Of a stretch of DNA of 35,641 nucleotides, positions 2,568 through 31,411 are shown one piece after another. Under the pieces are notes generated by a model. That model had not been told where the DNA came from. It searched no databases and saw only the letters and a list, made by a program, of their open reading frames with translations. The DNA comes from a virus: IMG/VR virus record IMGVR_UViG_3300045988_048484. One strand, 5' to 3'. Position 1 is the stretch's first letter. Each line of letters starts with the position of its first letter. Both the position numbers and the translations under genes were made by a program.

Positions 2568-2577
2568 TTTTCACACC

Positions 2578-8749: not shown

Positions 8750-9164
8750 TTGTTTTTCCTCCTTCGAATTCTTCGATCGTGACTTCGATTCGCGGGTCTT
8801 TCGGGTCCACGGCGAAGTCGTCTGTGAAATGCTCGATCTGGCCCCACCCGTCATTATCCAGGACGCCACAGTGGACCAGGCTGTCCTGAATGAACTTTTT
8901 CGCGAAGGCGATATTGTCCTTATCGCGACGACGGTTCGGTTCGACCCACAGATAGCGGATCACGACGGGGCGGTCGAAATGGACGCCGCGAAGCTGTGTC
9001 TTTACCATGTATCCGATCACGTTTTCGGCCTGTTTCTTCATGGCGGCGGCCTTATACTTACCCTTGACGGCTCTTTCGGCGTCAATGTATTCGTTTAACC
9101 CTGGCAGAAGGCCAGGAATGGTCAGTTTGTACTGTTTTTTCACTCGTTCACGTCCTTTCCTCAC
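8736..9164 (-). CDS. rusA: RusA-like Holliday junction resolvase
   Basis: 142 aa with RRRDKDNIAFAKKFIQDSLVHCGVLDND, the RusA catalytic Asp-rich pattern. Confidence 0.8.
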   Translation of the reverse strand: MRKGRERVKKQYKLTIPGLLPGLNEYIDAERAVKGKYKAAAMKKQAENVIGYMVKTQLRGVHFDRPVVIRYLWVEPNRRRDKDNIAFAKKFIQDSLVHCGVLDNDGWGQIEHFTDDFAVDPKDPRIEVTIEEFEGGKTNGKR

Positions 9165-10009
9165 AGGCCCAGAATCTTTCGGGCCTTGTCACGCCGTTCG
9201 GCGGCGTTCTGGGTTCGCCTGGATTCGCCGGCAAGTTTCAGCTTGATCGGACACATTTCCAGGATTCGGTCATAGATTCGCGCATACCCCAGGGAAGGCG
9301 GATTCTGAAGGTCGGCCAGGGAAAGATTCGTGGTGACGATCAGGGGTTTTCCGGAACGGCTTCGGGCGTCTATGATGTTGAAGACCTGTTCGACAGAAAA
9401 CGACGTGTCACGTTCGACGCCCAGGTCGTCAATGACCAGAAGGTCATAACGGTTCAGCTTGTCCAGGAATTCCTGTTTGTCTTCTCCGAACCCCTGAAGT
9501 TTGTTCAGAATTCGGGGAAAGTTCGTGACGCTGACCCTGACACATTTGTCGATCAGTGCGTTCGCGATACAACAGGCCAGGAAGGACTTTCCGGTCCCGA
9601 CGCCGCCATAGAACAGAATTCCGATATTGTCGGCCTTCATTTCCTCCCAGTGGTCGACGTACTTCAGACAGACGTCAGTGATCTTCTGATTCCGGCCGTC
9701 GTCCTGGTCGAAGGTCTGGACCAGATATGACGGATCGGTGATCCCGTCTTTTCGCCGGCGCTCGACCATTTCGCGGAACTTCCGGCGTTCTTCTTCCTGG
9801 CGTTCACGTTCCGCCTGTTCTGACCGGCATTTACACATACACGGAACAAGGACCGTCTTTTCGCCCAGGTCCAGGCGGTGTTCTTTTCGGGTTTTGCAGT
9901 TGCCGCAACACAGGAAGCCTTCTTCGTCACGGAAGTCGCCTTCGGCTTCGTTGTTCGCGCGGCCCCTTGCGGCGATCTGTTCCACGACGTCGCTGAAGAT
10001 GTTTCCCAC
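9161..10009 (-). CDS. DnaC/IstB-like AAA+ helicase loader
   Basis: Walker A GGVGTGKSF, Walker B LLVIDDLG, and an N-terminal CxxC zinc-ribbon-like region. Confidence 0.85.
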   Translation of the reverse strand: MGNIFSDVVEQIAARGRANNEAEGDFRDEEGFLCCGNCKTRKEHRLDLGEKTVLVPCMCKCRSEQAERERQEEERRKFREMVERRRKDGITDPSYLVQTFDQDDGRNQKITDVCLKYVDHWEEMKADNIGILFYGGVGTGKSFLACCIANALIDKCVRVSVTNFPRILNKLQGFGEDKQEFLDKLNRYDLLVIDDLGVERDTSFSVEQVFNIIDARSRSGKPLIVTTNLSLADLQNPPSLGYARIYDRILEMCPIKLKLAGESRRTQNAAERRDKARKILGL

Positions 10010-10011
10010 GG

Positions 10012-10791
10012 TTATTCACCCAGGAAGTCTTCGCCGTCGTCGTAGTTTTTGGCGGCGGTCGGCTTCGGTGAAGGCGTTACCTCTGCGCGATCGTATTCGT
10101 TCCAACGCTCACCGCGAAGGAATGTGGCCGGATAGGGAATGAAGCGACCTTCGTCCTTCGTCCACTGTTCAGAACGCTTCCAACGCTCGACGCCCTGGAC
10201 GATCTGGTCGATAAGGCTGTCGTCAGGCTTGATCTGGTTCCAGACCTTCACAGCGTCCTTCTTCCCGACCTTACGGGGATAAGCAGACCAGAAGCGGTCA
10301 AACCCGTCGCGGCCACCGGCGCCGTTTTGCGCCGTTGCTCGTTTTCGTTCCTCGTTTACGTTTTCGTTTTCGTTTACGTTTACGGAAGAATCTGTTTGCA
10401 TTTGCGCGCAAGTGTTAAAATCTTCACCTGTTTCCTGTTGTGTGCAAATGCTATCAAGGGAACACGGAAGCGGAAACTTGCTTTTCTGTGCGCGTCTGTT
10501 CTGGTGTTTGTCCCAGGACAATAATTTCAGGTATTTCTTGCCGTCTTCGGCGGCTGTGTATGTAGCCACCAGGCCGGCCTTGCATAATTCGGAAAGCCAG
10601 GAAGCGACTTTTCTTTCGGTCGGGACGCTCAAAGGGAACAGAAGTGAAGCTATAATCTTCGGGTTCCCGTGGTACAGGCCGAAGTCGTCCGCTTTGACGA
10701 TCAGACGATAGAACAGGACTTCCGCTTCGGCCGAAATTGTGGCCAGGTTTTCCGACGTGCAGATCGATTCTTTCAAAATGCGACTTGGCAT
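10012..10791 (-). CDS. Phage replisome organizer / DnaD-like replication initiation protein
   Basis: The N-terminus ILKESICTSENLATISAEAEVLFYRLIVKADDFG is the replisome-organizer N-domain pattern. The C-terminus FDRFWSAYPRKVGKKDAVKVW is helicase-loader/DnaD-like. Confidence 0.8.
   Translation of the reverse strand: MPSRILKESICTSENLATISAEAEVLFYRLIVKADDFGLYHGNPKIIASLLFPLSVPTERKVASWLSELCKAGLVATYTAAEDGKKYLKLLSWDKHQNRRAQKSKFPLPCSLDSICTQQETGEDFNTCAQMQTDSSVNVNENENVNEERKRATAQNGAGGRDGFDRFWSAYPRKVGKKDAVKVWNQIKPDDSLIDQIVQGVERWKRSEQWTKDEGRFIPYPATFLRGERWNEYDRAEVTPSPKPTAAKNYDDGEDFLGE
10341..10383. repeat. Run of GTTTTC/GTTTAC hexamers inside the replisome organizer gene (candidate iterons/origin)
   Basis: gttttc gttcctc gtttac gttttc gttttc gtttac gtttac. 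On the minus strand it encodes the linker VNVNENENVNEE. Confidence 0.7.
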
Positions 10792-10806
10792 TTCTTACAC
10801 CACCTT

Positions 10807-11580
10807 TCAAGCGTTCTTCTGGCAAGCGCGACACATTTCGCGGCCATACTTCTTCATGGAATATTGCTGTTCGGCGGAACTGATAGGTCCGCCACATACA
10901 GGACACACAGAACCGGTCGTCTGGCCGTTATTCTGGCCCTGTGGCGCGTTTTGCGGTGCGCGGTTGGTAGTTTGTCCACCCTGGGCCTGTGCGGCGTTCT
11001 GGGGTGCGTTCTGGGCGGCTCTGGGCGCCTGGGTGTAACCGTTCATATTGAAGCGGACAACGCCGTTCCGGTCCACGATCACCAGGTCACAGATTTCGCG
11101 GCGGTCGTCATAGGCGATCTTCGACACCTTGAAGCGCGTGTTCGAATAGCACTTGAAGACCTCTTTGTTTCCCTGGCGTTCGGAATAGAATTCGCCGTCT
11201 GCCAGTTCGACATAAATGAACGGGCCGGTGTAAAGTTCACGGCCGATCCCGACGTTAAAGCCGGCGCGTTTGAAGGCGTCCGACGCCTGGCCTTTTTCCT
11301 TTTCGGTGTTACTCTCGACGCCGACGTCCTGTTTCCGGACCCAGGTTTTCTTTTCTTCGTCCCAGATGTCGATCGAACAGAACAGGTTCCCGTTGATCAC
11401 TTCGTGGGTTCTCTGCCAGTTCCCAGGGCCGAAGACCAGGTCCAGGATTCGCATATCGACACGGGCGTCCTTGTAAAGCAGAAGGACGGCGCCGACCTTG
11501 CCGGTTTTCGCCTTGCTGACAGACTGAACGCGACAGTCTATGTCCTGTTCAGTCAGAAGGGGAATGGTGAATTCTTTCAT
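10807..11580 (-). CDS. Rad52/Sak-like single-strand annealing protein with a C-terminal zinc ribbon
   Basis: KGQASDAFKRAGFNVGIGRELY is the Rad52-family signature. The C-terminus carries CPVCGG...CRACQ. Confidence 0.8.
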   Translation of the reverse strand: MKEFTIPLLTEQDIDCRVQSVSKAKTGKVGAVLLLYKDARVDMRILDLVFGPGNWQRTHEVINGNLFCSIDIWDEEKKTWVRKQDVGVESNTEKEKGQASDAFKRAGFNVGIGRELYTGPFIYVELADGEFYSERQGNKEVFKCYSNTRFKVSKIAYDDRREICDLVIVDRNGVVRFNMNGYTQAPRAAQNAPQNAAQAQGGQTTNRAPQNAPQGQNNGQTTGSVCPVCGGPISSAEQQYSMKKYGREMCRACQKNA

Positions 11581-11593
11581 ATCGTCGCCCCCC

Positions 11594-12088
11594 TTACTTG
11601 ATCTGAATGTTTCGGTTCTCGATCAACGTCGCGCCGGCGATTTCCTGTCCGGCCTGAATTGCCTTCTTGATTGCCGTTTTGTCCGGCTTCGTGGACACGG
11701 TTTCCACGATAAAGTCAGCCGGAAGGGCGCCTTCGTCTTCGATATTCACCGCCACGGACTTTCTGAAGGACACGCGGACCTTTGCGGTTTCGACCTTGTC
11801 ACGGCCGGCGGCGTCCAGACAGGAAGTCAGATACTTCTTCATGTTGTCGACCTTACGTTCTGCGCTCTTTCTGCGCTCTGCCAGGCTCGATTCCTCTGTC
11901 TTCAGGGAACCGATAAAGGCTTCCAGGTTCTTAATGTAACAGGCCACAGATTCGGCCTTTTCCTCAAACACACCGGCCAGGGCGTCCACTGCTTCGAAAT
12001 TCAGGATTTCGCCGGTTTCTTCGTCGACCTCCAAACGGTCGAAGGCTTCCAGATATTCACGGGTGATTTCATACAGACTATTATTCAT
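11594..12088 (-). CDS. Siphovirus Gp157-like protein
   Basis: 164 aa with an N-terminal coiled coil (ITREYLEAFDRLEVDEETGEI) and a C-terminus ending in IK. It sits upstream of the annealase, as in many Firmicutes phages. Confidence 0.6.
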   Translation of the reverse strand: MNNSLYEITREYLEAFDRLEVDEETGEILNFEAVDALAGVFEEKAESVACYIKNLEAFIGSLKTEESSLAERRKSAERKVDNMKKYLTSCLDAAGRDKVETAKVRVSFRKSVAVNIEDEGALPADFIVETVSTKPDKTAIKKAIQAGQEIAGATLIENRNIQIK

Positions 12089-13094: not shown

Positions 13095-14135
13095 TCAAAT
13101 TAGCATGGCGACGCCTTCAGCGAACACAGAATTCGCGCTTCTGAATCCGTGAATTTCTCTGGGGTAGTTGTTGATCCAGTCTTCGACCTGGCGGATCGCC
13201 TTCGCCGTTACCTGGCGGAAGTCAGTCCCCTTCGGGAACCACCGGCGGATCATTTTATTCAGATTTTCGTTCGTCCCTCTCTCATACGAAGAATAGGGGT
13301 GACAATAATAGACCTTTGTCCTGTTGCCTTTCCGGCGACAGGACTTTTCTATTCCCTGGCAGTCGGCGAATTCGGAACCGTTGTCGACGGTGATCGTCTG
13401 GAATATCTTATAGAAGGCGGCGCCGTATTGACGTTCAAGGCGATCCAGGGCCGCGACGACGCTTCGGCTTGTCTGGTCCTTCATAGGGATAATGATTTCT
13501 TTTCTGGACTTTCGTTCGGTCAGAACCAGAAGGGTTTTCTTCGTCTTTTTCTTGCCTTCGACACAGTCCATTTCCCAGTGACCGACGGTTTCCCTGGCGT
13601 TGATCTCTTTCGGGCGGTTTTCAATACTTTCACCGGCGGAAGGACGGGAAGCCTTCTTCACGCGGTTATAGGAACGCTTCTTCTTGCTCTTTTCCGGAAG
13701 GCTTTTGTTCGTAATGGTCAGAAAGACACCTTTGTCGATATAGGAATAAAGGGTCGATTCACAGATCGACGTCTGGAATTCGATTCCCTGTTCCTTGATT
13801 TCACCCAGGACAGCGGCCGGCGAATAGCCTTCTTCGCCGATCTTCTTTTCGATATACTGGGCCAGGGCGTGATCCTTGCCGATCTTCAGATCAGGACCCT
13901 TCGCCGCCAGGTGTTCCCTGTATGCCGCTTCGGCTATGTCCGGACTGTATCGTTCTTCTTCGGTCAGGTCCGAATTCGTGTGGATATAACGGCCACGCTT
14001 GACTTCGTTGTAAATGGTGCGAAGGTGGACACCGATTTCGTCGGCGATTTCCTGGTAATGCCGGCCGGCCTTCAACATGGCTTCAATCTTCAGGCGATCG
14101 TTCCATGATAAATGTCTGAATCTGCGTCTTTTCAT
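13095..14135 (-). CDS. IS30-family DDE transposase (346 aa)
   Basis: N-terminal HTH, then the catalytic core WEMD...TVDNGSEF...YCHPYSSYERGTNENLN (D, D, E spacing typical of IS30). The start was reset to the ATG at 14135 behind GGGAGGAATAACA. Confidence 0.88.
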   Translation of the reverse strand: MKRRRFRHLSWNDRLKIEAMLKAGRHYQEIADEIGVHLRTIYNEVKRGRYIHTNSDLTEEERYSPDIAEAAYREHLAAKGPDLKIGKDHALAQYIEKKIGEEGYSPAAVLGEIKEQGIEFQTSICESTLYSYIDKGVFLTITNKSLPEKSKKKRSYNRVKKASRPSAGESIENRPKEINARETVGHWEMDCVEGKKKTKKTLLVLTERKSRKEIIIPMKDQTSRSVVAALDRLERQYGAAFYKIFQTITVDNGSEFADCQGIEKSCRRKGNRTKVYYCHPYSSYERGTNENLNKMIRRWFPKGTDFRQVTAKAIRQVEDWINNYPREIHGFRSANSVFAEGVAMLI

Positions 14136-14155
14136 TGTTATTCCTCCCTGGGTAA

Positions 14156-14187
14156 GCAAAAAGGCCCCGTCCGTAATGGACAGGGCC
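14156..14187 (-). terminator. Rho-independent terminator after the RHH gene
   Basis: Minus-strand RNA GGCCCUGUCC-AUUAC-GGACGGGGCC forms a 10-bp stem with one G-U pair, followed by UUUUUG. Confidence 0.75.
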
Positions 14188-16113: not shown

Positions 16114-17082
16114 TTATACTTTCTGAAGGTTGGACGCCTTGACGGCGGCGGTGACAGTCTTTCCGATACCAATGACGACACGATCGCCGTTCACCTGGAT
16201 CACGTCATAGACGTCATAATAGGTCTTGAAGGTTCCGCCGTTGTAGGTCTGGGCCTTCAGGACCTTTACTTTGTCGCCCTTGCGGATCGTCTGATCGGCG
16301 CCGGCGGAAATGTCGGCCGCGTCGACCCACCCGTAAACAGTGGAACCCCTTCCGGACACTGCGACCAGGTGGTAAGGGTGGGCCTTACCGGCCGCGATCG
16401 CGGTGATCTTCGCCTTTCCGGCCTTACAGGTTTTCCTTGTGGCGGTCTTATAGGCGGAAGTGTAGTGGCTTGTTCCGGTGAAGTCGACTTCCATTCCGAC
16501 GGCCAGGGGCTTTTCTTCGACCTGGTCGTCCTTTCCGACGACGGGTTCCTGATAGCTTCCCAGGCGTTTATTGACTTCGTCGGCGATCTGGCCGTGGCGG
16601 TTATACAGATAATCGCCAGGACAGGACTTGTTCGCATAATCGCGGTGAACGGTCATATTACAGCCGTTTCTGTGATTTACGCGGTCAGTCTTGTTCGTAG
16701 ACCAGACCAGTTTCTTGATCCCGTTTCGCTGACAGATGTCAGTCACCAGGTCGATCAGGGCGGCGAAGGCCTTGTCGTTTACGGCGTAGGGGTGTTTCGT
16801 ATCAGACGCGACTTCGATCGTGATCGCGCGGTGGTCGTTGGCGCCACTGGAAGAACACCAGGAACGGTCCTTTTCTTCGACATACATTCCGATTCGGCCG
16901 TCGACGCCGACGCCGTAATTCGAAGACGCCTGTCTGGAAGTAGGGGCGAAGATGTTTCCCAGGGTTTCGACCGAACACTGGCCGACGACACAGTGGATCG
17001 TGATCGTGTCGATCTTCTTATTTCTGGGACTGGTCTTGTTCGGGGAAATTTTGGTGTAGCTTACAAGGGGACTATTGCTCAT
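16114..17082 (-). CDS. Endolysin: N-acetylmuramoyl-L-alanine amidase (Amidase_2/PGRP) with C-terminal SH3-like wall-binding repeats
   Basis: IDTITIHCVVG...SSNYGVGVDGRI...AITIEV...HRDYANKSCPG is an Amidase_2 signature. It follows the holin genes. Confidence 0.88.
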   Translation of the reverse strand: MSNSPLVSYTKISPNKTSPRNKKIDTITIHCVVGQCSVETLGNIFAPTSRQASSNYGVGVDGRIGMYVEEKDRSWCSSSGANDHRAITIEVASDTKHPYAVNDKAFAALIDLVTDICQRNGIKKLVWSTNKTDRVNHRNGCNMTVHRDYANKSCPGDYLYNRHGQIADEVNKRLGSYQEPVVGKDDQVEEKPLAVGMEVDFTGTSHYTSAYKTATRKTCKAGKAKITAIAAGKAHPYHLVAVSGRGSTVYGWVDAADISAGADQTIRKGDKVKVLKAQTYNGGTFKTYYDVYDVIQVNGDRVVIGIGKTVTAAVKASNLQKV

Positions 17083-17805: not shown

Positions 17806-18055
17806 GGTGTTCCAGGTCTTCGATTCGGTGGTTCGCGACCTTCATCTTTTCTTCATAAACGTCAAGCGCTTTTTCGACCTTGTAAAGTCTTTCGACCGCG
17901 CTATTATGAAGTTCCACCTTCTTTTCAAGCTGTTCCAGGCGGTAAGCGATCAGCGCCGAACTTTTCCGGTGGGCGAAATAGGTTCCGGCCAGGGTTCCGA
18001 CCAGGGACAGAAGTCCTATGATAATTCCTTCGGTCATTCGGTCACCTCCGTCCAC
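17792..18055 (-). CDS. BhlA/UviB-like protein: N-terminal TM anchor plus coiled coil
   Basis: GIIIGLLSLVGTLAGTYF is followed by a heptad-rich stretch LEQLEKKVELHNSAVERLYKVEKALDVYEEKMK. Confidence 0.5.
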   Translation of the reverse strand: MDGGDRMTEGIIIGLLSLVGTLAGTYFAHRKSSALIAYRLEQLEKKVELHNSAVERLYKVEKALDVYEEKMKVANHRIEDLEHHDQA

Positions 18056-18504
18056 CCATAGACGCCAGGTTCCCAGACGTTCGCGTCGACGTCAGAAGTC
18101 CAGTGTTTCCCGTTGTGGGAAACCTTCGCGCCGGCGTCATAAGCGTCCTGGGCGCCGACAGGCTGTGACCAGTCGGGCCATTCCACGGTCGGATCGCCAA
18201 TCTTCACCCACAGGGAAACGGCGGCGTCAGGGGTCCAGTCTGCTTGTGAAGTGTGATCCTGAATACAGCGGTACAGTTCGCCGTTATGGCGGCGAATGTT
18301 GCCGGCCTTGTATGTAGCCGGATAGACCCAGGGCGAAAACTGACTGGCGTTTTCGGTTGCGGTTACGTCGTCGATCTGGCCGCCTTCAGCCAGGGTCACA
18401 AAGGCGATAGAAGTCGCCCTGGAAATTTCGTTCACGGGGTTCTGTGCTTCCTGGGCCTTTGCTTCCTTCATGCTGACGGCTTCGCATTTTGTAGGATCGA
18501 ACAT
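18034..18504 (-). CDS. Protein with two CBM5/12-like (chitin-binding-type) carbohydrate-binding repeats
   Basis: YKAGNIRRHNGELYRCIQDHTSQADWTPDAAVSLW and YDAGAKVSHNGKHWTSDVDANVWEPGVYGW match the Y..G..V...G..Y........W.P pattern. Confidence 0.65.
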   Translation of the reverse strand: MFDPTKCEAVSMKEAKAQEAQNPVNEISRATSIAFVTLAEGGQIDDVTATENASQFSPWVYPATYKAGNIRRHNGELYRCIQDHTSQADWTPDAAVSLWVKIGDPTVEWPDWSQPVGAQDAYDAGAKVSHNGKHWTSDVDANVWEPGVYGWTEVTE

Positions 18505-18521: not shown

Positions 18522-20222
18522 TTATGCGAAACGGATCGTCGCCTGTGTAACTTCGATTTCTTCGTCACCCTTCAGGATATAGAAGCGATAACCCAGGCCG
18601 TAACCGTTCGCGGCTGTCGTGTTGCTGAAAACGTGAACAAGGCTGTTCACTTTGCTTGTGATTTCCTCCCATACAGGGGAATCGTCGAACGGATTGTTCG
18701 TGACTTCCAGGTAAAGGGTGGAATCCGCCGGCCTTTCGGTCGGATAAAGAGAAATAAAGACCTTCTGGACCAGGGCGTCGGTAGAGAAGGCGCGCGCGGC
18801 CGCGATTCTGCTGACGGTTCGGCTGAAGGTGATCTTCCTTGTGGCCGTTCCGCCGGCGCCGTCGCTTGCGGTGATCGTCAGGACGTGGGTTCCGGCGATC
18901 AGTTTCAACCAGACGTCAGTCAGGTCGATCGTGTTTGTGGCGCCGCTTGTGGCGGTGTAGCTTCGAAGGGTGATCGTTTCGGAACCGTTCGTCAGAGTTT
19001 CAACGACGGTCAAGGTCTGGGACGAAGCCTGGGCGTCAGTCACGGTATAGGAATGACTGAAGGGGTCAGTCTTCGCGCCGACGTTGGTGTCGGAACCGCT
19101 GATCACGGGCGCGGTGTTGTAGGAAATGGTTTTCGCGGAACCGGTACAATATCCGGATTCAAGGCCGTTCGCGTCGACTGCCTTCACGCGGACCTGATAG
19201 GTCGTTCCGGACGTCGGAACAGTGTCGGTGATCGACTTTGTGGTCGTGATCCCGATCTGGGTGTAGGCGCCGGAATCGGTTCGTCTTTCCCAGACGTAGG
19301 AAATGGCGTCGCCTTCAGGATCGGAAGAACCGCCGGTCGTGATTGTCAGACTATTTCCGGCCTGTGGTGTGCCATAGGAAATAGAAGACGGATCAGTGGG
19401 CGGCTGATTCCACTGAAGGATATAAGCGCCGTCTGTGTCTGTTGAATCGGATACCAGATTCGTAGATGCCAATTCCAAAGCCGGCCGAACGCCATAGTCG
19501 CCACCGTACGCGCTGTAGCCGTTCAGACTGCCGCCAGTGTAGACACTGCGCGCAAGGTGCGCGCCGCCGGCGTACGGGGTACGAAGCCACCAATACCAGG
19601 CAGAAGAAGCGTTCAGACTGGAATTTGTATATTCGGACATGCTGACTGCTTCGGCCGTAGGCATACACTGACGACGTGTGGCGCTGTTGAAGTAAGACCA
19701 GACGGTTCCTTCTGCGACGCTGTTTTCGTTGGCCAGGCCGACTTCGGTGTTCGACAACAGATAGACCTTTCGGGTGATGTCTTCATAACCGCCGCCGTCG
19801 GTGACGGTGTTCTTTGCGACACGGATCACGCTGTCCAGGATCGCGGCGCGGAAGTCTGCTTCGAAGTTGGTCAGGAAGCCGGCTTCGGCGTCGTATTCGT
19901 TGTAGTTCGACCAGACATTCGCGTTTGTGGGCGCGGCGTCGGCGCTGTGCCTTGCGGAATACCAGGAAGAAGCGGCACTGTTTAACCACTGGTCAATGTT
20001 GGACACTGAATAGCGGTTATTACCGTAGTTCTTGCGATCGGAATTACTGTTCGACGCTTCCTTCGCGTCGAAGGCCTTCAGTGTGATAATCTTTTCAGTG
20101 ACCAGTTTCGTTCGGCCCGTCGCCTGGTGACCCACTATGAACCTGATCTGTTTCCCGTTGTACTTCGTATTCGCCGACTTGACGATCGCGCCAACGGGCA
20201 AAGCGGAAAGTAATTTCGCCAT
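18522..20222 (-). CDS. DGR target protein 2 (566 aa): N-terminal variable lectin-like domain, followed by Ig/FN3-like repeats and a C-terminal beta-rich domain. Probable receptor-binding tail protein
   Basis: It contains VR2 at about codons 215-248 (WYWWLRTPYAGGAHLARSVYTGGSLNGYSAYGGDYGVRPAL). Downstream come DPEGDAISYVWE- and NTAPVISG-type Ig-like segments. RBS GGAGGGAATAACCT. Confidence 0.88.
   Translation of the reverse strand: MAKLLSALPVGAIVKSANTKYNGKQIRFIVGHQATGRTKLVTEKIITLKAFDAKEASNSNSDRKNYGNNRYSVSNIDQWLNSAASSWYSARHSADAAPTNANVWSNYNEYDAEAGFLTNFEADFRAAILDSVIRVAKNTVTDGGGYEDITRKVYLLSNTEVGLANENSVAEGTVWSYFNSATRRQCMPTAEAVSMSEYTNSSLNASSAWYWWLRTPYAGGAHLARSVYTGGSLNGYSAYGGDYGVRPALELASTNLVSDSTDTDGAYILQWNQPPTDPSSISYGTPQAGNSLTITTGGSSDPEGDAISYVWERRTDSGAYTQIGITTTKSITDTVPTSGTTYQVRVKAVDANGLESGYCTGSAKTISYNTAPVISGSDTNVGAKTDPFSHSYTVTDAQASSQTLTVVETLTNGSETITLRSYTATSGATNTIDLTDVWLKLIAGTHVLTITASDGAGGTATRKITFSRTVSRIAAARAFSTDALVQKVFISLYPTERPADSTLYLEVTNNPFDDSPVWEEITSKVNSLVHVFSNTTAANGYGLGYRFYILKGDEEIEVTQATIRFA
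19475..19580 (-). repeat. DGR variable repeat VR2
   Basis: It aligns without gaps to TR 21452-21557. Over the 100-bp core (19481-19580) there are 17 mismatches, all where the TR coding strand has A. Confidence 0.93.
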
Positions 20223-21288
20223 AGGTTATTCCCTCCAATTCTTTTCTGAACAGGCTGAAGAACAGGTCGTCCGTCTTCCTGATCAGATGATAGCTGTTCC
20301 CGTGTTCGGCGTGGCCGGTCCAGGACGAATATGACTGAATGATCGTTTCAATGTCGATCCGGCCTTCGTCCAGAAGGTGACGGAATTTCTTCAGCTTTCG
20401 TCTGATTCGGTTTTTGCTGTCACGGCGAATTTTGCGGATCACCTTTCCGGTGTCCATCATGTAGGTCCTAAAACCCAGGAAGTCGATCCCCTGGGTCAAG
20501 GGAAATATGGCCGTTTTCTGGTTCAGTTCCAGTCCAAGCGGAACAAGGAATTTTCTGATTTCTTCCAGGCAATACTGAAGATATTCCTTGTCGTGGTGGA
20601 TCAGATAGAAGTCGTCCATGTAACGGCCATAAAATTTGATTCCCAGACGTTCCTTGATCATGTGGTCCATTCCGGATAGGTACAGGACCGCGAACCATTG
20701 TGAAGTGTGGTTCCCGATCGGGATTCCTGGCCCTTCGGTGGAATCTATGATCATATCAAGAAGCCATAAGACGTCGGTGTCTTTGATAAGCCGGCGAAGC
20801 TGTGATTTCAGAACGTCGTGATCGATTCTGTAAAAGTATTTTCGAACGTCGCACTTCAGGACCCACCCGTCCGTCCCGTGTTGCCGGTAAAACTTCTGCA
20901 TAAACAGTTTCAGGCGGTCAAGGCCGAAGTGTGTTCCTTTGCCCTTTTGACTTGCGTAGTTGTCGTATATGAAGGTTTTTGAAAGAACCGGTTCCAGGAC
21001 ATTGTCGCAAAGACTGTGCTGAACGATTTTGTCGCGGAATGAATTATACATAATCAGGCGTTCCTTCGGTTCCTTTACTATGAAGCAGTTATAAGGCGAA
21101 AGGCGGTATTTGTGTGACGTCAGCATGAAGTGAATGAACATAAGGTTTTCAAGAATGTTCGCTTCGTATTTGCAGACGGCATACTTCCACCGTTTACCTT
21201 TGCGCGCTTCTGTATACGACGAATACAGGCTGTTAAAGTCTGCGACAGACGCGAAGTCAGAAGGTTCTGCTTTCTGTTCTTCGCTCAA
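20095..21288 (-). CDS. DGR reverse transcriptase
   Basis: Hallmark IGNHTSQWFAVLYL (the DGR-specific motif-4 SQ) and catalytic YMDD (GRYMDDFYLI). TTG start at 21288 behind AAGGAGGA. The 3' end overlaps the target 2 start by 128 nt. Confidence 0.93.
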   Translation of the reverse strand: MSEEQKAEPSDFASVADFNSLYSSYTEARKGKRWKYAVCKYEANILENLMFIHFMLTSHKYRLSPYNCFIVKEPKERLIMYNSFRDKIVQHSLCDNVLEPVLSKTFIYDNYASQKGKGTHFGLDRLKLFMQKFYRQHGTDGWVLKCDVRKYFYRIDHDVLKSQLRRLIKDTDVLWLLDMIIDSTEGPGIPIGNHTSQWFAVLYLSGMDHMIKERLGIKFYGRYMDDFYLIHHDKEYLQYCLEEIRKFLVPLGLELNQKTAIFPLTQGIDFLGFRTYMMDTGKVIRKIRRDSKNRIRRKLKKFRHLLDEGRIDIETIIQSYSSWTGHAEHGNSYHLIRKTDDLFFSLFRKELEGITYGEITFRFARWRDRQVGEYEVQRETDQVHSGSPGDGPNETGH

Positions 21289-21451
21289 TTTAGAATCCTC
21301 CTTGACGCTTATAGTCCGGCCGTCACCACGGAAGGCCTTTCGTCGTCAATCATGTATTTACCGTAGCCTTTCCGGCTTGCGGAAGGAAACGACCTCCTTT
21401 GTTGGGGTACTCTGCTTTCAGGTTCGTCGCCTTACTCGGTCACGTTTTCCA

Positions 21452-21557
21452 CCAAATCCGGCCGAACGCCATTGTTGCCATTGTACGCGTTGTTGTTGTT
21501 CAGACTGCCGTCAGTGTTGACATTGCGCGCATTGTTCGCGTTGCCGGCGTTCGGGGT
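21452..21557 (-). repeat. DGR template repeat (TR)
   Basis: It lies between avd and the RT gene. On the coding strand it encodes TPNAGNANNARNVNTDGSLNNNNAYNGNNGVRP, with 13 AAY Asn codons. The 100-bp core contains 31 adenines. Confidence 0.93.
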
Positions 21558-21583
21558 AACAGGTCGTTCCCTAATGGGTTTTA

Positions 21584-22042
21584 TCACACGCCTTCAGGTA
21601 TCGGCGCCGAAGGTTCCACCGGTTCGGCGGTTTCCTGTTCGGCCTTATACCATTTAGCGGTCATAAACTTAACGTCCAGGGTCAGCTTCGTCCAGTAGTC
21701 AAAGGTTCCCTTGTCGATATAGGACCGCTTCTTCGACAGTTCGATCATGTGAAGCAGTTTCTTACATTCGGTCAGGGCGGCCCTTTGCAGACGAAGCCGT
21801 TCCAGGCGATCCGCTTCGTCGCGGATCGGGAATATTTCGTTCGCTTCCAGTAGGTCGTCATATATGGCCATGACGTGACCCTGGATTCTGTTGACAATAG
21901 AAAAGCGAACCTTCTTCGGGAAGCGGTTCGCGTTGTCAGTCAGGTCCAGGGTGTAGTCGATCAGCTTGTCGGCCACCGGAAGAACGTGAAGCGGACTTTC
22001 GTTTTTATTCGAAGACCGCTGATAATTTCTTCGGGTTCCCAT
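21584..22042 (-). CDS. avd: Avd-like DGR accessory variability determinant (four-helix-bundle protein)
   Basis: 152 aa. LIDYTLDLTDNANRFPKKVRFSIVNRIQGHVMAIYDDLLEAN fits the Avd/four-helix-bundle pattern. It ends 26 nt upstream of the TR. Confidence 0.8.
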   Translation of the reverse strand: MGTRRNYQRSSNKNESPLHVLPVADKLIDYTLDLTDNANRFPKKVRFSIVNRIQGHVMAIYDDLLEANEIFPIRDEADRLERLRLQRAALTECKKLLHMIELSKKRSYIDKGTFDYWTKLTLDVKFMTAKWYKAEQETAEPVEPSAPIPEGV

Positions 22043-22262
22043 TGATACACCTTCGCTTTCTTATTCTTTCGACTGTTTCCGGATCGCCGGAATAGTCGAA
22101 GCCATATTCACGAAGGACGACGGTTTCTTCCGTGCCTTCGTAGGTTACGCCACACAGAACCACGCTGTCGCCCTCACAATGGCCGCAGACGGGCCGAAGT
22201 TCGGTGAATAGGTTAGACACCAGACAGGACGTTTCTGAAGGCGTACAGGCGAACCTGGTCAC
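22005..22262 (-). CDS. Hypothetical Cys-containing small protein (85 aa)
   Basis: Its start overlaps the fiber-gene stop by 4 nt. No family was recognised. Confidence 0.4.
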   Translation of the reverse strand: MTRFACTPSETSCLVSNLFTELRPVCGHCEGDSVVLCGVTYEGTEETVVLREYGFDYSGDPETVERIRKRRCINGNPKKLSAVFE

Positions 22263-23005
22263 AGATACAGGCGATTCTGGGACGTGTCCAGAATCCCTTC
22301 TGGAACGCCGTCGCCGTCATAGCCGACCCAGTTCGCGATCTGTGCCGGCGCGAAGGTGTGTGTCACGGTGGTTCCCGCGAAGCCGGTGTTTAACTGGTCC
22401 AGGATCGACTGAATGTCGTTGTCCTGGCGTCGCTGAACCTGTTCGGTCGTTTCGCCGGTCGTTTCGTTGATCGTGGACGCGGCCTGGGTGTGGACCACCG
22501 GCGCCGCGTAGGCGATTAACTGGGTATTTGTGACGTAGGAACCGGCGCCCACCTGAACGGACACGGCGGCCGCTTCCTGGTTCGTAATGAAGACGGCCAG
22601 GTCGTGAATGTGGACAGTGTCGGCCCCGTCTTCGAAAGACGTCGCCGGAATGACGTTGTCACTGTCTTCGCCGTCAAGCCACCCATAACAGAACAGGATT
22701 TCCTCTCCGTTGATGTCCTGGCCGAAAACGCCGATTTCTCTGACCCAGACGTTCGCTTCCAGTGCTTCGTTCGTGATCTGAACGGGAATTCGCATGATCG
22801 CCGGTGTGCCGTCGACGAATTCCTTTCCGGCAAGGTTCGCGGTTACGTCTTCAGGATTGATAAGTCCCGACAGGGTGTTCGGACTGACGTCCGGAACTCC
22901 ACTTCCGGCGGCCGCGCGCGTCAGGTTCAGTCCCTGTCCTGAAGCGATCAAGGCTGTCAGCGCTTCGACGCCGCTGTCGGTAACGATAGACTTGAATTTT
23001 GCCAT
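22259..23005 (-). CDS. Tail fiber protein (P2 H / Mu S-type conserved N-terminal domain)
   Basis: MAKFKSIVTDSGVEALTALIASGQGLNLTRAAAGSG resembles the conserved tail-fiber N-terminus. It follows the baseplate genes. Confidence 0.7.
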   Translation of the reverse strand: MAKFKSIVTDSGVEALTALIASGQGLNLTRAAAGSGVPDVSPNTLSGLINPEDVTANLAGKEFVDGTPAIMRIPVQITNEALEANVWVREIGVFGQDINGEEILFCYGWLDGEDSDNVIPATSFEDGADTVHIHDLAVFITNQEAAAVSVQVGAGSYVTNTQLIAYAAPVVHTQAASTINETTGETTEQVQRRQDNDIQSILDQLNTGFAGTTVTHTFAPAQIANWVGYDGDGVPEGILDTSQNRLYL

Positions 23006-25439: not shown

Positions 25440-26396
25440 TTACACCACCTTCAATTTCAAAGACATAGTTTCCTTCAGAAGATCGTGACTGGCTTCTTCG
25501 ACGACAAAGAAGGACTTCACGTCCACGGCGCCGATTCCGATAAACAAGGCGCGGCCGGCGCGGACGGACAGGTCAGCGATCGCGTTCACGCTAAAGGACC
25601 GCTTCGGTCTGTTGTAAAGTTCCAACATTTGATCGCCGCGTTCCTTGATCTGCGCTTCGTTCATGTTTTCGTCGACCGTTTCGTAATTTTGCAGAATACC
25701 CCAGAAGTTCATATTGTTTGAATCCTGGAAGATATAGGCGTCACGCTTTCCGGTTTCCTTATTGTCGCGGGCCAGTTTGATCTTGTTGAAGGTGTCGGAA
25801 TCTATGTCGGTTTCATAGGTGAAGCCTGTCGCCAGGCTACCGTCACCCACGAAAAGGTCCAGTTTCGCGGTTTCGACGTCAGTCAACGTCAGTTTTCCGA
25901 AGTCGTCCCACAGAACGAACATTTTACCGGTATTGATCAGGGTGTAGTCGATCGCCTTCAGGACAATATCGAAAAGGGTTTGTCCGTCTTCGATCATGGA
26001 AGGGATCACATATCCCGTATTGACCAGGCTTCCGGTCTTCAGTTTGAAGTCCTCCGCGATCTGTAAAAGAATCTGGTCGGCGCGCTTACCGGTAAAGACA
26101 TAGGTTTCCTTGTTTTTCTTCAAATACCAGGTTTGATCGTAGGCCAGAACCTGAACCTGGTCTTTTTCGTTCTGGCTGATTTTCACAACGTAACCGTAGA
26201 ACAGGCCCACGTCGCCGTCCTTCAAACAAAGGATTCCGCCGTGTGTCCATTCCACCGCGCCGTCGGCGATCGCGGTCAGGTCCAGGGAAGAAGGGGAACC
26301 GGACCGTTTTGTCGACCATTTCGCGGCCGTGATCAGCGTCGTAATGTCGAACGCGTCACCGGTGACGTTGTTCTGATACAGGATAGAAATTCCCAT
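25440..26396 (-). CDS. Baseplate hub / late control D-like protein (XkdQ/YqbQ-like)
   Basis: 318 aa in the conserved position after the LysM protein. Confidence 0.7.
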   Translation of the reverse strand: MGISILYQNNVTGDAFDITTLITAAKWSTKRSGSPSSLDLTAIADGAVEWTHGGILCLKDGDVGLFYGYVVKISQNEKDQVQVLAYDQTWYLKKNKETYVFTGKRADQILLQIAEDFKLKTGSLVNTGYVIPSMIEDGQTLFDIVLKAIDYTLINTGKMFVLWDDFGKLTLTDVETAKLDLFVGDGSLATGFTYETDIDSDTFNKIKLARDNKETGKRDAYIFQDSNNMNFWGILQNYETVDENMNEAQIKERGDQMLELYNRPKRSFSVNAIADLSVRAGRALFIGIGAVDVKSFFVVEEASHDLLKETMSLKLKVV

Positions 26397-27052
26397 TATG
26401 GAATCGTGAACACCTGTCCGGCGTAGATCAGATTCGGGTTCGAACCGATCACGCCTTTATTGGCGTTATAAATTTTCGTGTAGTCGCTCCCCTTGCCGTA
26501 GATCGCTTTCGCGATATTCCACAGGCAGTCCCCAGGCTTCACGGTGTAGGTTTTACTGGTCTGTTCCGGCGTCCCTGGCCTTTCGGGTTCCTGGGTCTTC
26601 GCTGGTTCTTCCTTCTTTTCTGGAAGGACGATTCTTTTCGGGGAAATATCCTTCCATTCGTACAGCTTGATCGTGTAATACAGATCCCCCAGTTCGCCGG
26701 ACCGTTCTTCGTATTCGAAGGAATCAATTCCCATACGAAGGTTACAGTCCAGGTCTGTTCCGGTGATCAGGAAGCGGACAGGGGCCTTCTGGTCCCTGGC
26801 CTTCTGGATCGCCTGGATAATGCTGACAGGGTCCCTGATCTGGCCGACGGTATACGGCGCCTTCGCCATAGGGAAGAAACTTTCCCAGGACAGGATTCGA
26901 AGGCCCTTCTTTCGAAGAAGAAGAACTTCGCCCAGTTCAAGAACGGTCACCCGTTCGTTTTTGCCAGGCGAAGAAACATTCAGTTTCGCCGGAAGGACGG
27001 GAATGTTTATTTCCCGTCCCCCGACGATCAGGGTCATTTTGTAGTTGCTCAT
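26396..27052 (-). CDS. LysM-domain tail protein (XkdP-like)
   Basis: The C-terminus carries a LysM domain: YTVKPGDCLWNIAKAIYGKGSDYTKIYNANKGVIGSNPNLIYAGQVFTIP. Confidence 0.85.
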   Translation of the reverse strand: MSNYKMTLIVGGREINIPVLPAKLNVSSPGKNERVTVLELGEVLLLRKKGLRILSWESFFPMAKAPYTVGQIRDPVSIIQAIQKARDQKAPVRFLITGTDLDCNLRMGIDSFEYEERSGELGDLYYTIKLYEWKDISPKRIVLPEKKEEPAKTQEPERPGTPEQTSKTYTVKPGDCLWNIAKAIYGKGSDYTKIYNANKGVIGSNPNLIYAGQVFTIP

Positions 27053-28953
27053 TAGTTATACACCCCTTCCGCCGCCGCTGTGAATTCGTCTTCCAGTTTC
27101 TTTTCGATCTTGGTGACGACTTCGTCGACGTCGACTTTTTCGCTGATCTGGGCGTCCACCGCCACAGTAGGCGTCAAAGTGACGAAGTTCTGGACATAGC
27201 GCATTTCGGCCACGTCGCGAAGGAATTTCAGGTCTTCGTCGGCGATATTGACGTCGCTTTCGATAGAACCCACCGATCCGACACTGTCCACGTTTCCGAC
27301 GTCATACTGGTCAGTATTCCAGTCGGACACGCCGGCGTCAGAATTTGCCTGGGCGGCTTCGGCTCTGGCGTTTGCGTAGGTTTCGGACAGTTGGGCCGTA
27401 GCGTCGGCAAGTTCTTGCTTCGCCGCTGAATATGTGGCGTCGCGTTCTGCCTGGGCGGCCTTGATGTCCGCTTCATACTGATTCAGGGCGTCGGCCCTTG
27501 CCTGTTTGGCGGCTTCGTTTTCGGCGGCCGCTGTCGTGGCGAAGGTCACCTGTTCGATCAGGCTGATATTGACGCCAGGAATCTTGTTCAGAAGGGATAT
27601 GAAGTCGTTAATGATTCCGATCGCGCCGTTAATCATGTTCTGAAGAACCGTTAAGACGCTGACCTTCATATCGCCCATGAAGTTAGCTATGGCCGTTCCG
27701 GCCTTTTGCCAACATAGCTTTAATTTGTCGATCAGGTTCGCGATCCAGTTGTAAACCGCAAAGAAGGCCACCTTCAGGGCAGTCCAGGCCACCACAAGGG
27801 CCGCCTTGCAGATTTCCCAGGCGTTCTTCACGCCACCGACGGCCTGGATCATCTTGTAAAGGGCGGCGATTACGACGCCGACCGCAAGGGCGATCCAGAA
27901 CAAAGGATTCGACAGAAGGGTCACGAAGAAGGCCTTCGCGGCGCCATTCGCGATCCATGTCGCGGCGGTCTGAATACCCAGGGCCACCGCGTAAGCGATA
28001 GCCGCGCCGGCAAGGCCCCAGAAGATCGGGGCGATAGTGGACCAGTTTTCATAAATCCACTGGGCGCCGGCGCCGATCGCCTGGATAACAGGCCCGAAGG
28101 CTTCCAGGGCGATATTCTTCGCCAGGGTCCAGACCTGGGCGAAGGTCATAGGCATAGCGTTAAACTTCGCGTTGATTTCGTCGGCAGACGACAACATGGC
28201 ATTTTTGACGATCGTTGAAGTGATCTGGCCTTCGGCGGCCATAGCGCGAATTTGTCCGATAGGAACGCCCAGATAGTCGGCGATCGTCTGAATAATTGTA
28301 GGCGCCTGTTCAAAAATGCTGTTCAGTTCTTCACCACGAAGGACGCCGGAAGACATGGCCTGGGTAAGCTGTAACATAGCCGCGTCCACGCCGGCGGCAG
28401 ATGTGCCGGCGATCGTGAACTGTTTGTTAATCAGTTCTGTAAACTGGATCAGTTCGGCGTTGTTTCCGAAGGCGTCCTTCGCCATAATACCCATTTTGGA
28501 AACGGCGTCAGCGGTTGTCTGATAGGCCGCGCGTGAACGATTCGCGGACGCCATAATCATAGACTGAAGTTCGTCCGTGGTCTGAAGACCGTCGTTCATT
28601 AGATCGATTCTGGCCCTGGTCGTGGTCATGGTGTCCGCCAGATCAATAATCTTTTGGACGCTGATCGCCGCCAGGGCAGAACCAATATATTTCTTTACGC
28701 TTCCCCAGGCGTTCGCGACGCCTTTCGCTTCTTTCTGGGCCTGTTGCTGTTTACGGTTGAAGTTATCAACCTGACCGGAAGCGCGACTGACGGCCGAAGA
28801 CGCCCTGTCGAAATTCGCGCCAGGGTTTACCTGGTCCGACAGGCTGTCGGTCACTTCCAGGGCGCGGTTCGTTCTGGAAAGGGCGGTGGTGATCTTCCGC
28901 AGTTTGGAAGTCATACCGTCACGAATAGTCATTTGTGTAGCTACTCCGGCCAC
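27052..28953 (-). CDS. Tail tape measure protein
   Basis: 633 aa, helical and Ala-rich, with a central hydrophobic block. GTG start behind AAGGAAGGTGA. It follows the chaperone pair. Confidence 0.88.
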   Translation of the reverse strand: MAGVATQMTIRDGMTSKLRKITTALSRTNRALEVTDSLSDQVNPGANFDRASSAVSRASGQVDNFNRKQQQAQKEAKGVANAWGSVKKYIGSALAAISVQKIIDLADTMTTTRARIDLMNDGLQTTDELQSMIMASANRSRAAYQTTADAVSKMGIMAKDAFGNNAELIQFTELINKQFTIAGTSAAGVDAAMLQLTQAMSSGVLRGEELNSIFEQAPTIIQTIADYLGVPIGQIRAMAAEGQITSTIVKNAMLSSADEINAKFNAMPMTFAQVWTLAKNIALEAFGPVIQAIGAGAQWIYENWSTIAPIFWGLAGAAIAYAVALGIQTAATWIANGAAKAFFVTLLSNPLFWIALAVGVVIAALYKMIQAVGGVKNAWEICKAALVVAWTALKVAFFAVYNWIANLIDKLKLCWQKAGTAIANFMGDMKVSVLTVLQNMINGAIGIINDFISLLNKIPGVNISLIEQVTFATTAAAENEAAKQARADALNQYEADIKAAQAERDATYSAAKQELADATAQLSETYANARAEAAQANSDAGVSDWNTDQYDVGNVDSVGSVGSIESDVNIADEDLKFLRDVAEMRYVQNFVTLTPTVAVDAQISEKVDVDEVVTKIEKKLEDEFTAAAEGVYN

Positions 28954-30076: not shown

Positions 30077-31411
30077 TTAATTTACGACGACAGTCATGTA
30101 AAGTTTTTCCATGCTGTCGTTAGGCTGAAGCGCGCAGTCGACGGAAACGTCGCGTTTGCCGTCGCCCTGGTTTACGGTAATATCGGCGCTGTTGAAATTG
30201 CTGATCGCGTCGATAGACTGATACTGAAGGGCCAGGGCCACCAGATCAGCCTTGAAAAGCTGACGGCCGGTGTCGCTGTTGGTAACAAGGCCGATATAAG
30301 AATCGCCGAAAATACGGGCGACGTCGTTCGCCCACCCGTCCATGACACGGACAACGCGGTTAGAAGTCCAGTCGCCGGACATATTCTGGCCAATGGTTAC
30401 CAGGCTGTTAATATCAGTCAGAACGCGCGCCTTGCCATAATCGGCATAGAAGACGAATTCGCCGGCCTGGATAGCGGCTTCGAACTGGGACTTCGTATAT
30501 TTAATATCGACGTCCACAGCGTCGTCGTAGGCGGTATTCGTCAGGCTTTCGTTGACCTCCGCGCCGGCGGAAGCGCCAGTCACCCAGGCGACAGCCTTGT
30601 CACCGGTCACGACGGTTCCGTTCGTAAGAACGACGCCGTTCTTGACGTTGATCAGGCCCAAATTGTCGCCGTCGTACTGGTAAAGGACGCCGACGATCTT
30701 TCGACCTTCGTCGTCACGAAGACGCTTCACGAAGGCGGCGAAAAGGGACTTGATGTCTTCGTCAGTGCCAGGATAGCCGATCACGTTGAAGGATTCGACT
30801 TCGAAGGCCACCAGGGCGGCGGTGTAGTTTGCGGCCTTGACTTCGCCGTTCGCGCCACCGGTCAGCGCTGTCGCGGTTGCGATAGTAAGAGAATCGACGG
30901 TTCCGAAGGTTACGAAGTTGTTCGCCACCAGGGACGCGGCGCCGCCGTCCTTTGCGACGGTCTGGCTGTCCATGACCATATCGTCAAGATAGGTCACGAC
31001 GTCAACCTTTGTCGCGTCGTCGACGTTGGTGATCACTGCGACCTTGATGTCGTTTCCGCGTGTGCCGCCCCACTTTGCGGTCACGGTCATTCCGCCCACG
31101 GTTGCGGACGCCTTCGCGCCACCGCCGTTCACGCGGTAGATCAGAAGGGTCTTCGCGCGCTTCAGCGCTTCGCGGACCAGAAGAATATTCGCGTCAGTGG
31201 GATCGTAACCGAAGACCTTCAGACTGGACGCGTTGAAGTCAGTCGCGGTCATTGCGAAGACCTGGGATTCAGGTCCCCAGTTAAGTTCCAGGGGAAGGGC
31301 GGCGACGCCACGGCTTCCCATTTTGGCGTTGGTTCCCATGCTTACGAAGTTAATGTAAGCGCCAGGAAGAATCTTGTTCTGTACTGTGAAAGTACCTCCA
31401 CCAATAGGCAT
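30077..31411 (-). CDS. Contractile tail sheath protein (XkdK-like)
   Basis: 444 aa. The N-terminus GTFTVQNKILPGAYINF is typical of sheath proteins. Confidence 0.88.
   Translation of the reverse strand: MPIGGGTFTVQNKILPGAYINFVSMGTNAKMGSRGVAALPLELNWGPESQVFAMTATDFNASSLKVFGYDPTDANILLVREALKRAKTLLIYRVNGGGAKASATVGGMTVTAKWGGTRGNDIKVAVITNVDDATKVDVVTYLDDMVMDSQTVAKDGGAASLVANNFVTFGTVDSLTIATATALTGGANGEVKAANYTAALVAFEVESFNVIGYPGTDEDIKSLFAAFVKRLRDDEGRKIVGVLYQYDGDNLGLINVKNGVVLTNGTVVTGDKAVAWVTGASAGAEVNESLTNTAYDDAVDVDIKYTKSQFEAAIQAGEFVFYADYGKARVLTDINSLVTIGQNMSGDWTSNRVVRVMDGWANDVARIFGDSYIGLVTNSDTGRQLFKADLVALALQYQSIDAISNFNSADITVNQGDGKRDVSVDCALQPNDSMEKLYMTVVVN

Follow-up and report, generated by a model that had tools for sequence, protein, structure and literature searches.

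The prototype diversity-generating retroelement (DGR) is that of Bordetella phage BPP-1, arranged mtd-avd-TR-brt (avd, accessory variability determinant; TR, template repeat; brt, the gene of the reverse transcriptase bRT), in which the variable repeat (VR) lies at the C-terminus of the target protein Mtd. Closer to the present case are the gut phages nd12 and nd4 (GenBank OR777946 and OR777945), which carry the founding tentaclins, proteins with an N-terminal C-type-lectin-like DUF6273 domain whose beta-hairpin is mutated by a DGR, followed by one to four immunoglobulin-like (Ig-like) domains, with a C-terminal anchoring Ig domain that has a seven-residue consensus (Baykov et al. 2023, PMC10743442). 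Here we describe a locus of this kind, at positions 18,522 to 22,042 of the IMG/VR virus record IMGVR_UViG_3300045988_048484, a stretch of 35,641 nucleotides (nt) that was analysed over its whole length and is called the window below. We are confident that the locus is a complete DGR of the type avd-TR-reverse transcriptase (RT)-target, probably working by the mechanism proposed below and belonging to a temperate myovirus of gut Oscillospiraceae, and the DGR is very probably functional.

The likeness to nd12 and nd4 covers the order avd-TR-RT-target 1, a VR in the N-terminal DUF6273 domain of a tentaclin of roughly 570 amino acids (aa), a second, small, DUF6273-only target that lies far from the cassette and is served by the same TR, and a YNGNN motif in the TR. 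Identities to nd12, in which avd and target 2 were located by tblastn, are 61% for the RT, 44.7% for the tentaclin (over 98% of its length, the alignment running to residue 553 of 566), 42% for Avd, 32% for the small target and 82% for the TR (DNA), and the small target adjoins Mom-like and pyrophosphatase genes in both genomes; the nd4 tentaclin is 41.3% identical. The rest of the nd12 genome, however, is unrelated, the two sharing only the cassette, the endolysin, an IS30-like transposase and a few early genes, and the TR has 31 adenines here as against 28 in nd12 and 25 in nd4. A further set of relatives, the Faecalibacterium prophages Lelie and CP11 (PMC11792537) and Toutatisvirus (bioRxiv 10.1101/2024.10.15.618418), likewise combine one TR with a large and a small DUF6273 target, a VR at the C-terminal end of that domain, a second target many kb away (17.5 kb in Toutatisvirus) and Oscillospiraceae-type gut Firmicutes hosts, but they have a different genome backbone and their proteins are distant relatives only, the window's tentaclin being 33-35% identical to the 'Hoc-like' proteins of FP_Brigit and FP_Toutatis. 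As nd4, nd12, Lelie, CP11 and Toutatisvirus all have this design, the two-target tentaclin architecture is already published and the present genome is a new carrier of it, a point overlooked by an earlier note on this DNA, as were the N-terminal position of the VR in the large target and the RNA elements outside the TR. To the gut-phage DGRs in which one template serves two lectin-like targets, it contributes a complete circular genome whose host family could be inferred. It can serve as a well-annotated reference case and is a candidate for remote-target homing experiments; it leaves the understanding of DGRs unchanged.

A template repeat and two variable repeats

The cassette and its two targets consist of the following parts:

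21584 to 22042, minus strand: avd, accessory variability determinant, 152 aa
21452 to 21557, minus strand: TR, with a core (21458 to 21557) that matches both VRs; identical in 8 independent copies
20095 to 21288, minus strand: DGR reverse transcriptase, 397 aa, with a TTG start at 21288 preceded by AAGGAGG
18522 to 20222, minus strand: large target (tentaclin, from its sequence), 566 aa, DUF6273 at aa 38-252, then putative Ig-like domains
19475 to 19580, minus strand: VR2, aa 215-247 of the tentaclin, with 17 A-site differences from the TR
8051 to 8749, minus strand: small target, 232 aa from the ATG at 8749, DUF6273 only, with an acidic C-terminal tail
8217 to 8320, minus strand: VR1, aa 144-176 of the small target, 13.2 kb from the TR, with 17 A-site differences from the TR

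The earlier note had aligned the TR core by hand to 19481-19580 (VR2) and 8221-8320 (VR1) and had reported that both VRs depart from it at adenines only. Our recomputed three-way alignment is gapless over the same coordinates and agrees in every count: each VR has 17 mismatches, all 34 of them are at a T of the plus strand (a TR adenine on the coding strand, as the genes are on the minus strand), and the 69 positions other than the 31 adenines of the core are identical in all three copies, so that mismatches at non-adenine positions, which would have spoken against a DGR, are absent. If mismatches were scattered randomly over the 100 positions, all 17 of one VR would land on the 31 A sites with a probability of 4.0e-11, and those of both VRs with a probability of 1.6e-21. 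A TR pattern masked with N at each A site has exactly three matches in the window where 0 are expected (100 shuffles). In the frame of the targets the TR reads TPNAGNANNARNVNTDGSLNNNNAYNGNNGVRP and holds the 13 Asn codons that had been counted before; its adenines are at first (16) and second (15) codon positions and never at the third, and all 25 changed codons (12 in VR1, 13 in VR2) are nonsynonymous. This adenine-specific transfer from TR to VR is shared with BPP-1.

The two targets belong to one protein family, and some similarity between them is therefore expected, which might suggest that we are looking at mere paralogous stretches of DUF6273 genes, including one left over from a pseudogene, that were altered by normal mutation or gene conversion and have nothing to do with the RT. 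Beyond the block of 100-106 nt, however, the two targets and the TR flanks have no alignable DNA in common. Moreover, the TR is a non-coding copy located between avd and the RT, and the same geometry recurs in 36 related cassettes. The mismatch statistics are decisive, as 34 of 34 differences on a single base of a single copy (P about 1.6e-21) already refute descent from ordinary paralogues, and we give this explanation practically no weight.

At its 5′ end the homology between the TR and the VRs stops sharply, and on the 3′ side it continues past the core by 6 nt in VR2 and 4 nt in VR1. The G+C-rich GGCGTTCGGCCGG (ending in CCGG) is common to all copies, and the base that follows it is A in the TR and C in both VRs of the window; in the related genomes described below all 8 TR copies have A at this place and all VRs have C, whether they were aligned by BLAST (11) or found by pattern (the others). 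A G+C-rich 3′ end with a base that discriminates TR from VR is also present in BPP-1, and the TR-A/VR-C difference has the form expected of the directional elements of initiation of mutagenic homing (IMH in the VR, IMH* in the TR), so that a directional role is predicted for it. A shared 12-mer, GAATCTGG(G/T)ATC, that follows both VRs was considered as a DNA signal and rejected; the two occurrences first seemed to be in different frames, but the alignment shows same-frame homology together with a local duplication of GAATCTGG.

The reverse transcriptase, Avd and the RNA around the template

The RT contains the motifs GIPIGNHTSQWF and YMDD, as previously reported. Its IGNHTSQ fits motif 4 of DGR RTs, (I/L/V)GxxxSQ, and the presence of IGxxxSQ in this motif, rather than QGxxxSP, sets DGR RTs apart from those of other retroelements. 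The protein matches Pfam RVT_1 and PHROG 1423 (E 9e-138), and its best match among solved structures is PDB 8ub7_A (E 1.7e-41, 146 bits), which is BPP-1 bRT, as an 80-aa stretch of it is 100% identical to the BPP-1 brt gene; Foldseek labels 8ub7 as a DGR ribonucleoprotein. The active-site and template-contact residues of bRT (K29, F66, R74, I76, D138, I181, G182 and Q187, together with the YMDD aspartates), whose roles are described in bioRxiv 10.1101/2023.10.23.563531, are all kept in the alignment.

The possibility that this RT comes from another retroelement (a group II intron, a retron or a defence RT) and is near the repeats by chance takes some support from NCBIfam, where its best match is a group II intron RT/maturase model (E 4.8e-31) and no DGR RT family is among that library's matches. 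That match, however, reaches 108 bits against a cutoff of 300, and the retron and Drt models are far under their cutoffs. In PDB the best group II intron RT is found at E 2.4e-12, and group II and retron-type RTs score at most 50 bits, the retron-type lower still, compared with the 146 bits of bRT. An Rfam scan of the window returned a tRNA only and no group II intron or retron RNA, while Avd and RNA elements of the DGR type are adjacent to the RT. An origin in another retroelement is thus extremely improbable, and the assignment to the DGR type made in the earlier note holds, with bRT the closest RT in PDB by score. The RT frame overlaps the tentaclin gene by 128 nt (20095-20222) in another frame, compared with 16 nt in nd12, and this overlap is kept, with a 6-nt in-frame indel, in five relatives.

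The stop codon of avd is at 21584-21586, which confirms the spacing of 26 nt to the TR. Avd was identified solely through fold comparison and PHROGs, since sequence searches of PDB, with the single protein or with a profile of 35 sequences, gave no significant match. It matches PHROG 3206 'Avd protein of DGR' (E 1.4e-26); the NCBIfam match to DivGenRetAVD is full-length but under the curated cutoff (E 3.3e-7), its own Pfam matches are also under cutoff, and among 35 Avd homologues Pfam bAvd is found in 20 and 23S_rRNA_IVP in 30. The AlphaFold2 model (predicted local distance difference test score, pLDDT, 83) consists of four helices (residues 17-35, 43-69, 76-105 and 111-137). Its top Foldseek matches are 2rld (deposited as an S23 ribosomal protein family member) and 2gsc; against bAvd 4dwl_D it has a TM-score of 0.89 and a root-mean-square deviation of 1.9 Å, and the Avd chain 8ub7_B was matched as well. 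The Avd-like four-helix bundle that had been proposed is borne out by these comparisons, and the fold is one more feature in common with BPP-1.

In BPP-1 the 'cPRT Stop' is formed by a duplex between avd and the spacer (avd:Sp), a stem-loop and A-minor adenosines, and has been predicted in 207 other DGRs by Handa et al. (bioRxiv 10.1101/2023.10.23.563531); the template:primer duplex pairs TR117-129 with Sp47-56, in the layout Sp A56-G57-C58-duplex (bioRxiv 10.1101/2023.10.23.563531). Our alignment A3 covers the TR together with its flanks in 20 cassettes, namely those of the window, of nd12 and of 18 relatives. Its evaluation with RNAalifold and explicit pair counts gave the following elements:

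21561 to 21572, minus strand: 5′ strand of a long-range duplex, AGGGAACGACCU, between the avd stop codon and the TR
21449 to 21456, minus strand: UUUGGUGG, at or just past the 3′ end of the TR, candidate template strand of a template:primer duplex
21398 to 21405, minus strand: spacer strand CCAACAAA, candidate primer strand, with A21398 as candidate priming adenosine, then GG, then the long-range duplex
21384 to 21395, minus strand: 3′ strand of the long-range duplex, AGGUCGUUUCCU, in the spacer, putative equivalent of the Sp strand of the BPP-1 cPRT Stop
21353 to 21382, minus strand: stem-loop (21361-21382), then A-rich UAAAUACA (21353-21360)
21302 to 21349, minus strand: 3′ spacer domain closed by a 6-bp helix, UUGACG / CGUCAA (21344-21349 with 21302-21307), ending at the Shine-Dalgarno sequence of the RT

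The 12-bp duplex brackets the TR, and its 12 pairs are kept in all 20 sequences, 7 of them with compensatory changes. The helix of UUUGGUGG with CCAACAAA has 7 canonical pairs and one G.A, with 99.3% of cells paired and one compensatory change (U-A to A-U, in cassette L049). The basal pairs of the stem-loop covary (C-G to G-C in 8 sequences, to U-A in 2), its length varies, and two cassettes (L058 and L054) close it with GAAA or GCAA tetraloops of the GNRA type; in the 6-bp helix, 5 of the 6 pairs show compensatory changes. Over the whole model 98.9% of cells are paired and 16 of 31 pairs are compensatory, which none of 500 shuffles reaches and slid controls (at most 55%) do not approach. A single-sequence fold of the whole TR and spacer is no better than shuffles (z = –0.77), and the structure emerged through covariation only. 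The functional RNA reaches beyond the TR on both sides, and the BPP-1 RNA scaffold is kept, with covariation, in this Firmicutes-phage clade.

By layout (template:primer duplex, 2-nt linker, long-range duplex around the TR, stem-loop, adenosines) these elements appear to be equivalent to the cPRT Stop of BPP-1, and A21398, as the counterpart of Sp A56 in this layout, is a candidate priming nucleotide. One difference is that the long-range duplex has its 5′ strand inside avd in BPP-1 and in an intergenic position here.

On the pattern of BPP-1, from which we take the stop function of the duplex, cis-priming, the priming nucleotide, the homing route and the nature of the target ligands, the following mechanism is proposed. 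A transcript over the 3′ flank of avd, the TR and the spacer of roughly 160 nt would fold so that the 12-bp duplex brackets the TR and the CCAACAAA strand of the spacer pairs with UUUGGUGG at the TR 3′ end. The RT-Avd complex would prime in cis from a spacer adenosine, possibly A21398, and copy the TR into complementary DNA (cDNA) with misincorporation opposite adenines, beginning at about 21457-21458 and moving towards 21557. This cDNA would replace the homologous 100-nt VR in the tentaclin gene (VR2) and in the small DUF6273 gene (VR1), with directionality set by the G+C-rich GGCGTTCGGCCGG at the 3′ end, after which the VRs have C and the TR has A. About 13 Asn-coded positions in a surface loop of the lectin-like domain would thus be randomised in each target, presumably altering its ligand or receptor specificity.

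Recent diversification of both targets in related genomes

Scanning public collections (IMG/VR, metagenome-assembled genomes (MAGs) and metagenomes) with the A-masked TR pattern gave matches in five IMG/VR contigs, four stretches from two MAGs and seven metagenome contigs. The IMG/VR and MAG loci, which make up the aligned set, are 94-98% identical to the window. Eight TR copies from IMG/VR, MAG and metagenome contigs are 100% identical to the TR of the window although their flanks differ by up to 5%, and the 15 VR sequences (9 of VR2, 6 of VR1) are all distinct except for one contig pair that shares a VR. Between them, the VRs alter all 30 adenines of the search pattern, with a spectrum of 99 A>G, 72 A>T and 54 A>C changes.

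The most direct comparison is between nearly identical genomes. Loci L005 and L006 differ at 2/2000 flanking positions (0.10%) but at 14/99 positions of VR2 (14%), and L003 and L004 at 3/2000 flanking positions (0.15%) but at 12/99 positions of VR1 (12%); overall, VR divergence (12-23%) is uncoupled from flank divergence (0.10-5.5%). Both targets, the remote one included, have thus been rewritten far faster than ordinary divergence would allow, and the relatives provide clean natural evidence that very little evolutionary time suffices for this, even at a distance of 13 kb. Together with the identical TRs this supports the earlier view of an active or recently active element.

More widely, we collected 44 related cassettes with RT identities of 45-96%, of which 36 (RT 61-96%) have the same TR/VR spacing, in which the TR precedes the RT by about 270 nt and the VR follows the TR at about 1,985 nt; in one (L060, RT 45%) the VR is upstream of the TR instead. 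TR/VR mismatches in these cassettes are almost solely at adenines.

A number of points weigh against a complete, currently working DGR. The evidence for activity comes from related genomes and not from read-level data of this genome. The pattern search finds only VRs with intact non-A positions and alone cannot measure non-A change, for which reason the VR regions of overlapping loci were also aligned by BLAST; non-A sites are unaltered in 10 of these 11 VRs, and the other, a VR2 in an Eubacteriales MAG copy (L009, 4364-4470), has two non-A changes (G>T, G>C) besides 19 A-site changes, which may be either rare non-A errors of the element or ordinary point mutations. In one related cassette (L054, RT 77%) the TR and VR (2744-2849 and 4709-4814) differ at 6 A and 8 non-A positions; this looks like a decaying DGR and indicates that loss of activity does occur in the clade. 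No hairpin or cruciform was found 3′ of either VR by DNA folding (z-scores –0.06 and –1.4), inverted-repeat searches or comparison of 13 related VR flanks, unlike in BPP-1, where such an element enhances homing, although it is not universal; the conservation seen in the 13 aligned flanks is accounted for by protein sequence (LVSD..DTDG) and not by a stem. Finally, the AlphaFold2 model of the small target, made from a shallow alignment, is unusable (pLDDT 48), so that a lectin fold is assigned to this protein through its Pfam family and through the models published for homologues.

The first of these points, the L054 pair and the two non-A changes in the MAG copy would all be compatible with a relic, an element that diversified both VRs in the past and is now inactive in this genome. 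We consider this unlikely, as the RT, avd and both target open reading frames (ORFs) are intact, YMDD and the contact residues are kept, all RNA helices are intact, the VRs of the window are without any non-A change, the TR is invariant in its 8 copies despite the divergence of their flanks, and genomes 0.10-0.15% apart are already 12-14% different in either VR. A DGR that still functions is the reading that we retain.

Two further contigs are unusual. In one (L095, 729-827), three A sites are changed in a copy of the TR type, which is followed by ATTTGGT, and in the other (L096, 121-219; contig coverage 1.7x) VR2 is altered in its 3′ half only. These may be either assembly chimeras of TR and VR or traces of partial or aberrant homing.

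Target proteins and phage context

The 566-aa target probably has the domain order of a tentaclin, with a Pfam DUF6273 match (E 6.4e-37) that contains the VR, and about 320 residues after it in which Pfam gives weak, sub-threshold matches (PKD-like at 289-354, Big_9 at 369-466); PHROG 10993 is matched over the full length (E 2e-205). VR2 is accordingly in the N-terminal part of a multidomain protein and not at its C-terminus as in Mtd. The arrangement departs from BPP-1 in other ways too, as the target is downstream of the RT here and upstream of avd in BPP-1, and the present element has two targets, both of the DUF6273 family. Right after the tentaclin gene is a gene (18034-18504, minus strand) for a 156-aa protein with two CBM_5_12 carbohydrate-binding modules.

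The open frame of the small target extends to 8869, with AAGGAGG upstream of the ATG at 8749. The product matches Pfam DUF6273 (E 2.4e-14), PHROG 9958 matches the long ORF from residue 42, and a profile search of PDB returned only the DUF6273 part of an IgA protease. Its homologues fall into 1,050 clusters at 90%, and in 116 small-target sequences the VR codons with TR adenines have an entropy of 2.31 bits, compared with 0.24 for the other VR codons and 0.34 elsewhere.

In which part of the virion, if any, the two targets act can be read in more than one way. PHROG 10993 is labelled 'Hoc-like head decoration' and the relatives in FP_Brigit and FP_Toutatis are annotated likewise, while in this genome, as in nd12, the gene of the small target is flanked by those for RusA and a DNA methyltransferase and stands apart from the structural modules; the tentaclin might on these grounds be a Hoc-like capsid decoration that binds gut mucus or host-surface glycans, rather than a tail receptor-binding protein, and the small target a non-virion protein. 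On the other hand, the tentaclin gene is immediately preceded by the tail-fibre gene and the DGR cassette, there is a weak match between the C-terminal half of the protein and a solved 'tail fiber protein' (E 5e-5), and the Hoc label is an annotation only, the anchoring domain of tentaclins being different from T4 Hoc according to Baykov et al. (PMC10743442). We regard the decoration model as a serious but less favoured possibility.

For the small target, its place in the replication and DNA-modification block, which is the same relative place as in nd12, leads us to a speculative proposal that we hold to be rather improbable, namely that the product is an intracellular or released binding protein and not a virion receptor-binding protein. 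If so, the DGR would retune its specificity, perhaps against some host factor or defence component that varies, and would diversify a non-structural phage protein side by side with a virion adhesin. The role of this small target, encoded among early genes, is the question that deserves an experiment; otherwise the locus holds little surprise for specialists.

The first and last 55 nt of the window (1-55 and 35587-35641) are identical, which we interpret as the overlap of a circular assembly with a unique length of 35,586 bp (G+C 53%), and a 363-aa ORF adjoining the portal gene spans the circular junction. This overlap, together with terminase, portal, head, sheath, tape measure, baseplate, lysis and replication genes, substantiates the claim of a complete phage. 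The main modules are:

1071 to 4354: terS, terL and portal, with head genes across the junction
9161 to 12088: replication genes
13095 to 14159, minus strand: IS30-like DDE transposase gene (Pfam rve and HTH_38), 64% identical to the nd12 'IS30 family transposase'
16114 to 17082: endolysin (amidase)
22259 to 23005: tail fibre, directly upstream of the DGR cassette
27052 to 28953: tape measure
30077 to 31411: sheath

The structural modules, which also include baseplate genes, are those of a myovirus. A 228-kb Oscillospiraceae MAG contig carries an integrated copy of the phage at about 105-141 kb, from which we infer that the phage is temperate and that its host belongs to this family. Homology between the MAG contig and the window stops at ~13050, beside the IS30-like transposase gene, and this suggests integration by the transposase rather than by a tyrosine or serine integrase. 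Megablast against GenBank phages gave no match for the cassette or the structural half and no close phage relative, and scans for promoters and terminators near the cassette and the small target were uninformative, with counts like those of shuffled sequence.

Genes for a Mom-like DNA modification protein (6545-7042), a DNA methyltransferase (7039-7587) and a Mu Gam-like end-protection protein (11594-12088), together with the DDE transposase, give the genome a Mu-like flavour; no MuA or MuB homologues were seen. A tRNA-Leu (anticodon CAG; 4560-4644, minus strand) is located between a transcriptional-regulator-like gene and terS. Inside the tail module, beside the tape measure gene, is a gene (26396-27052, minus strand) for an endolysin-like or LysM-like protein that is distinct from the amidase endolysin and whose product is probably a tail-associated lysin.

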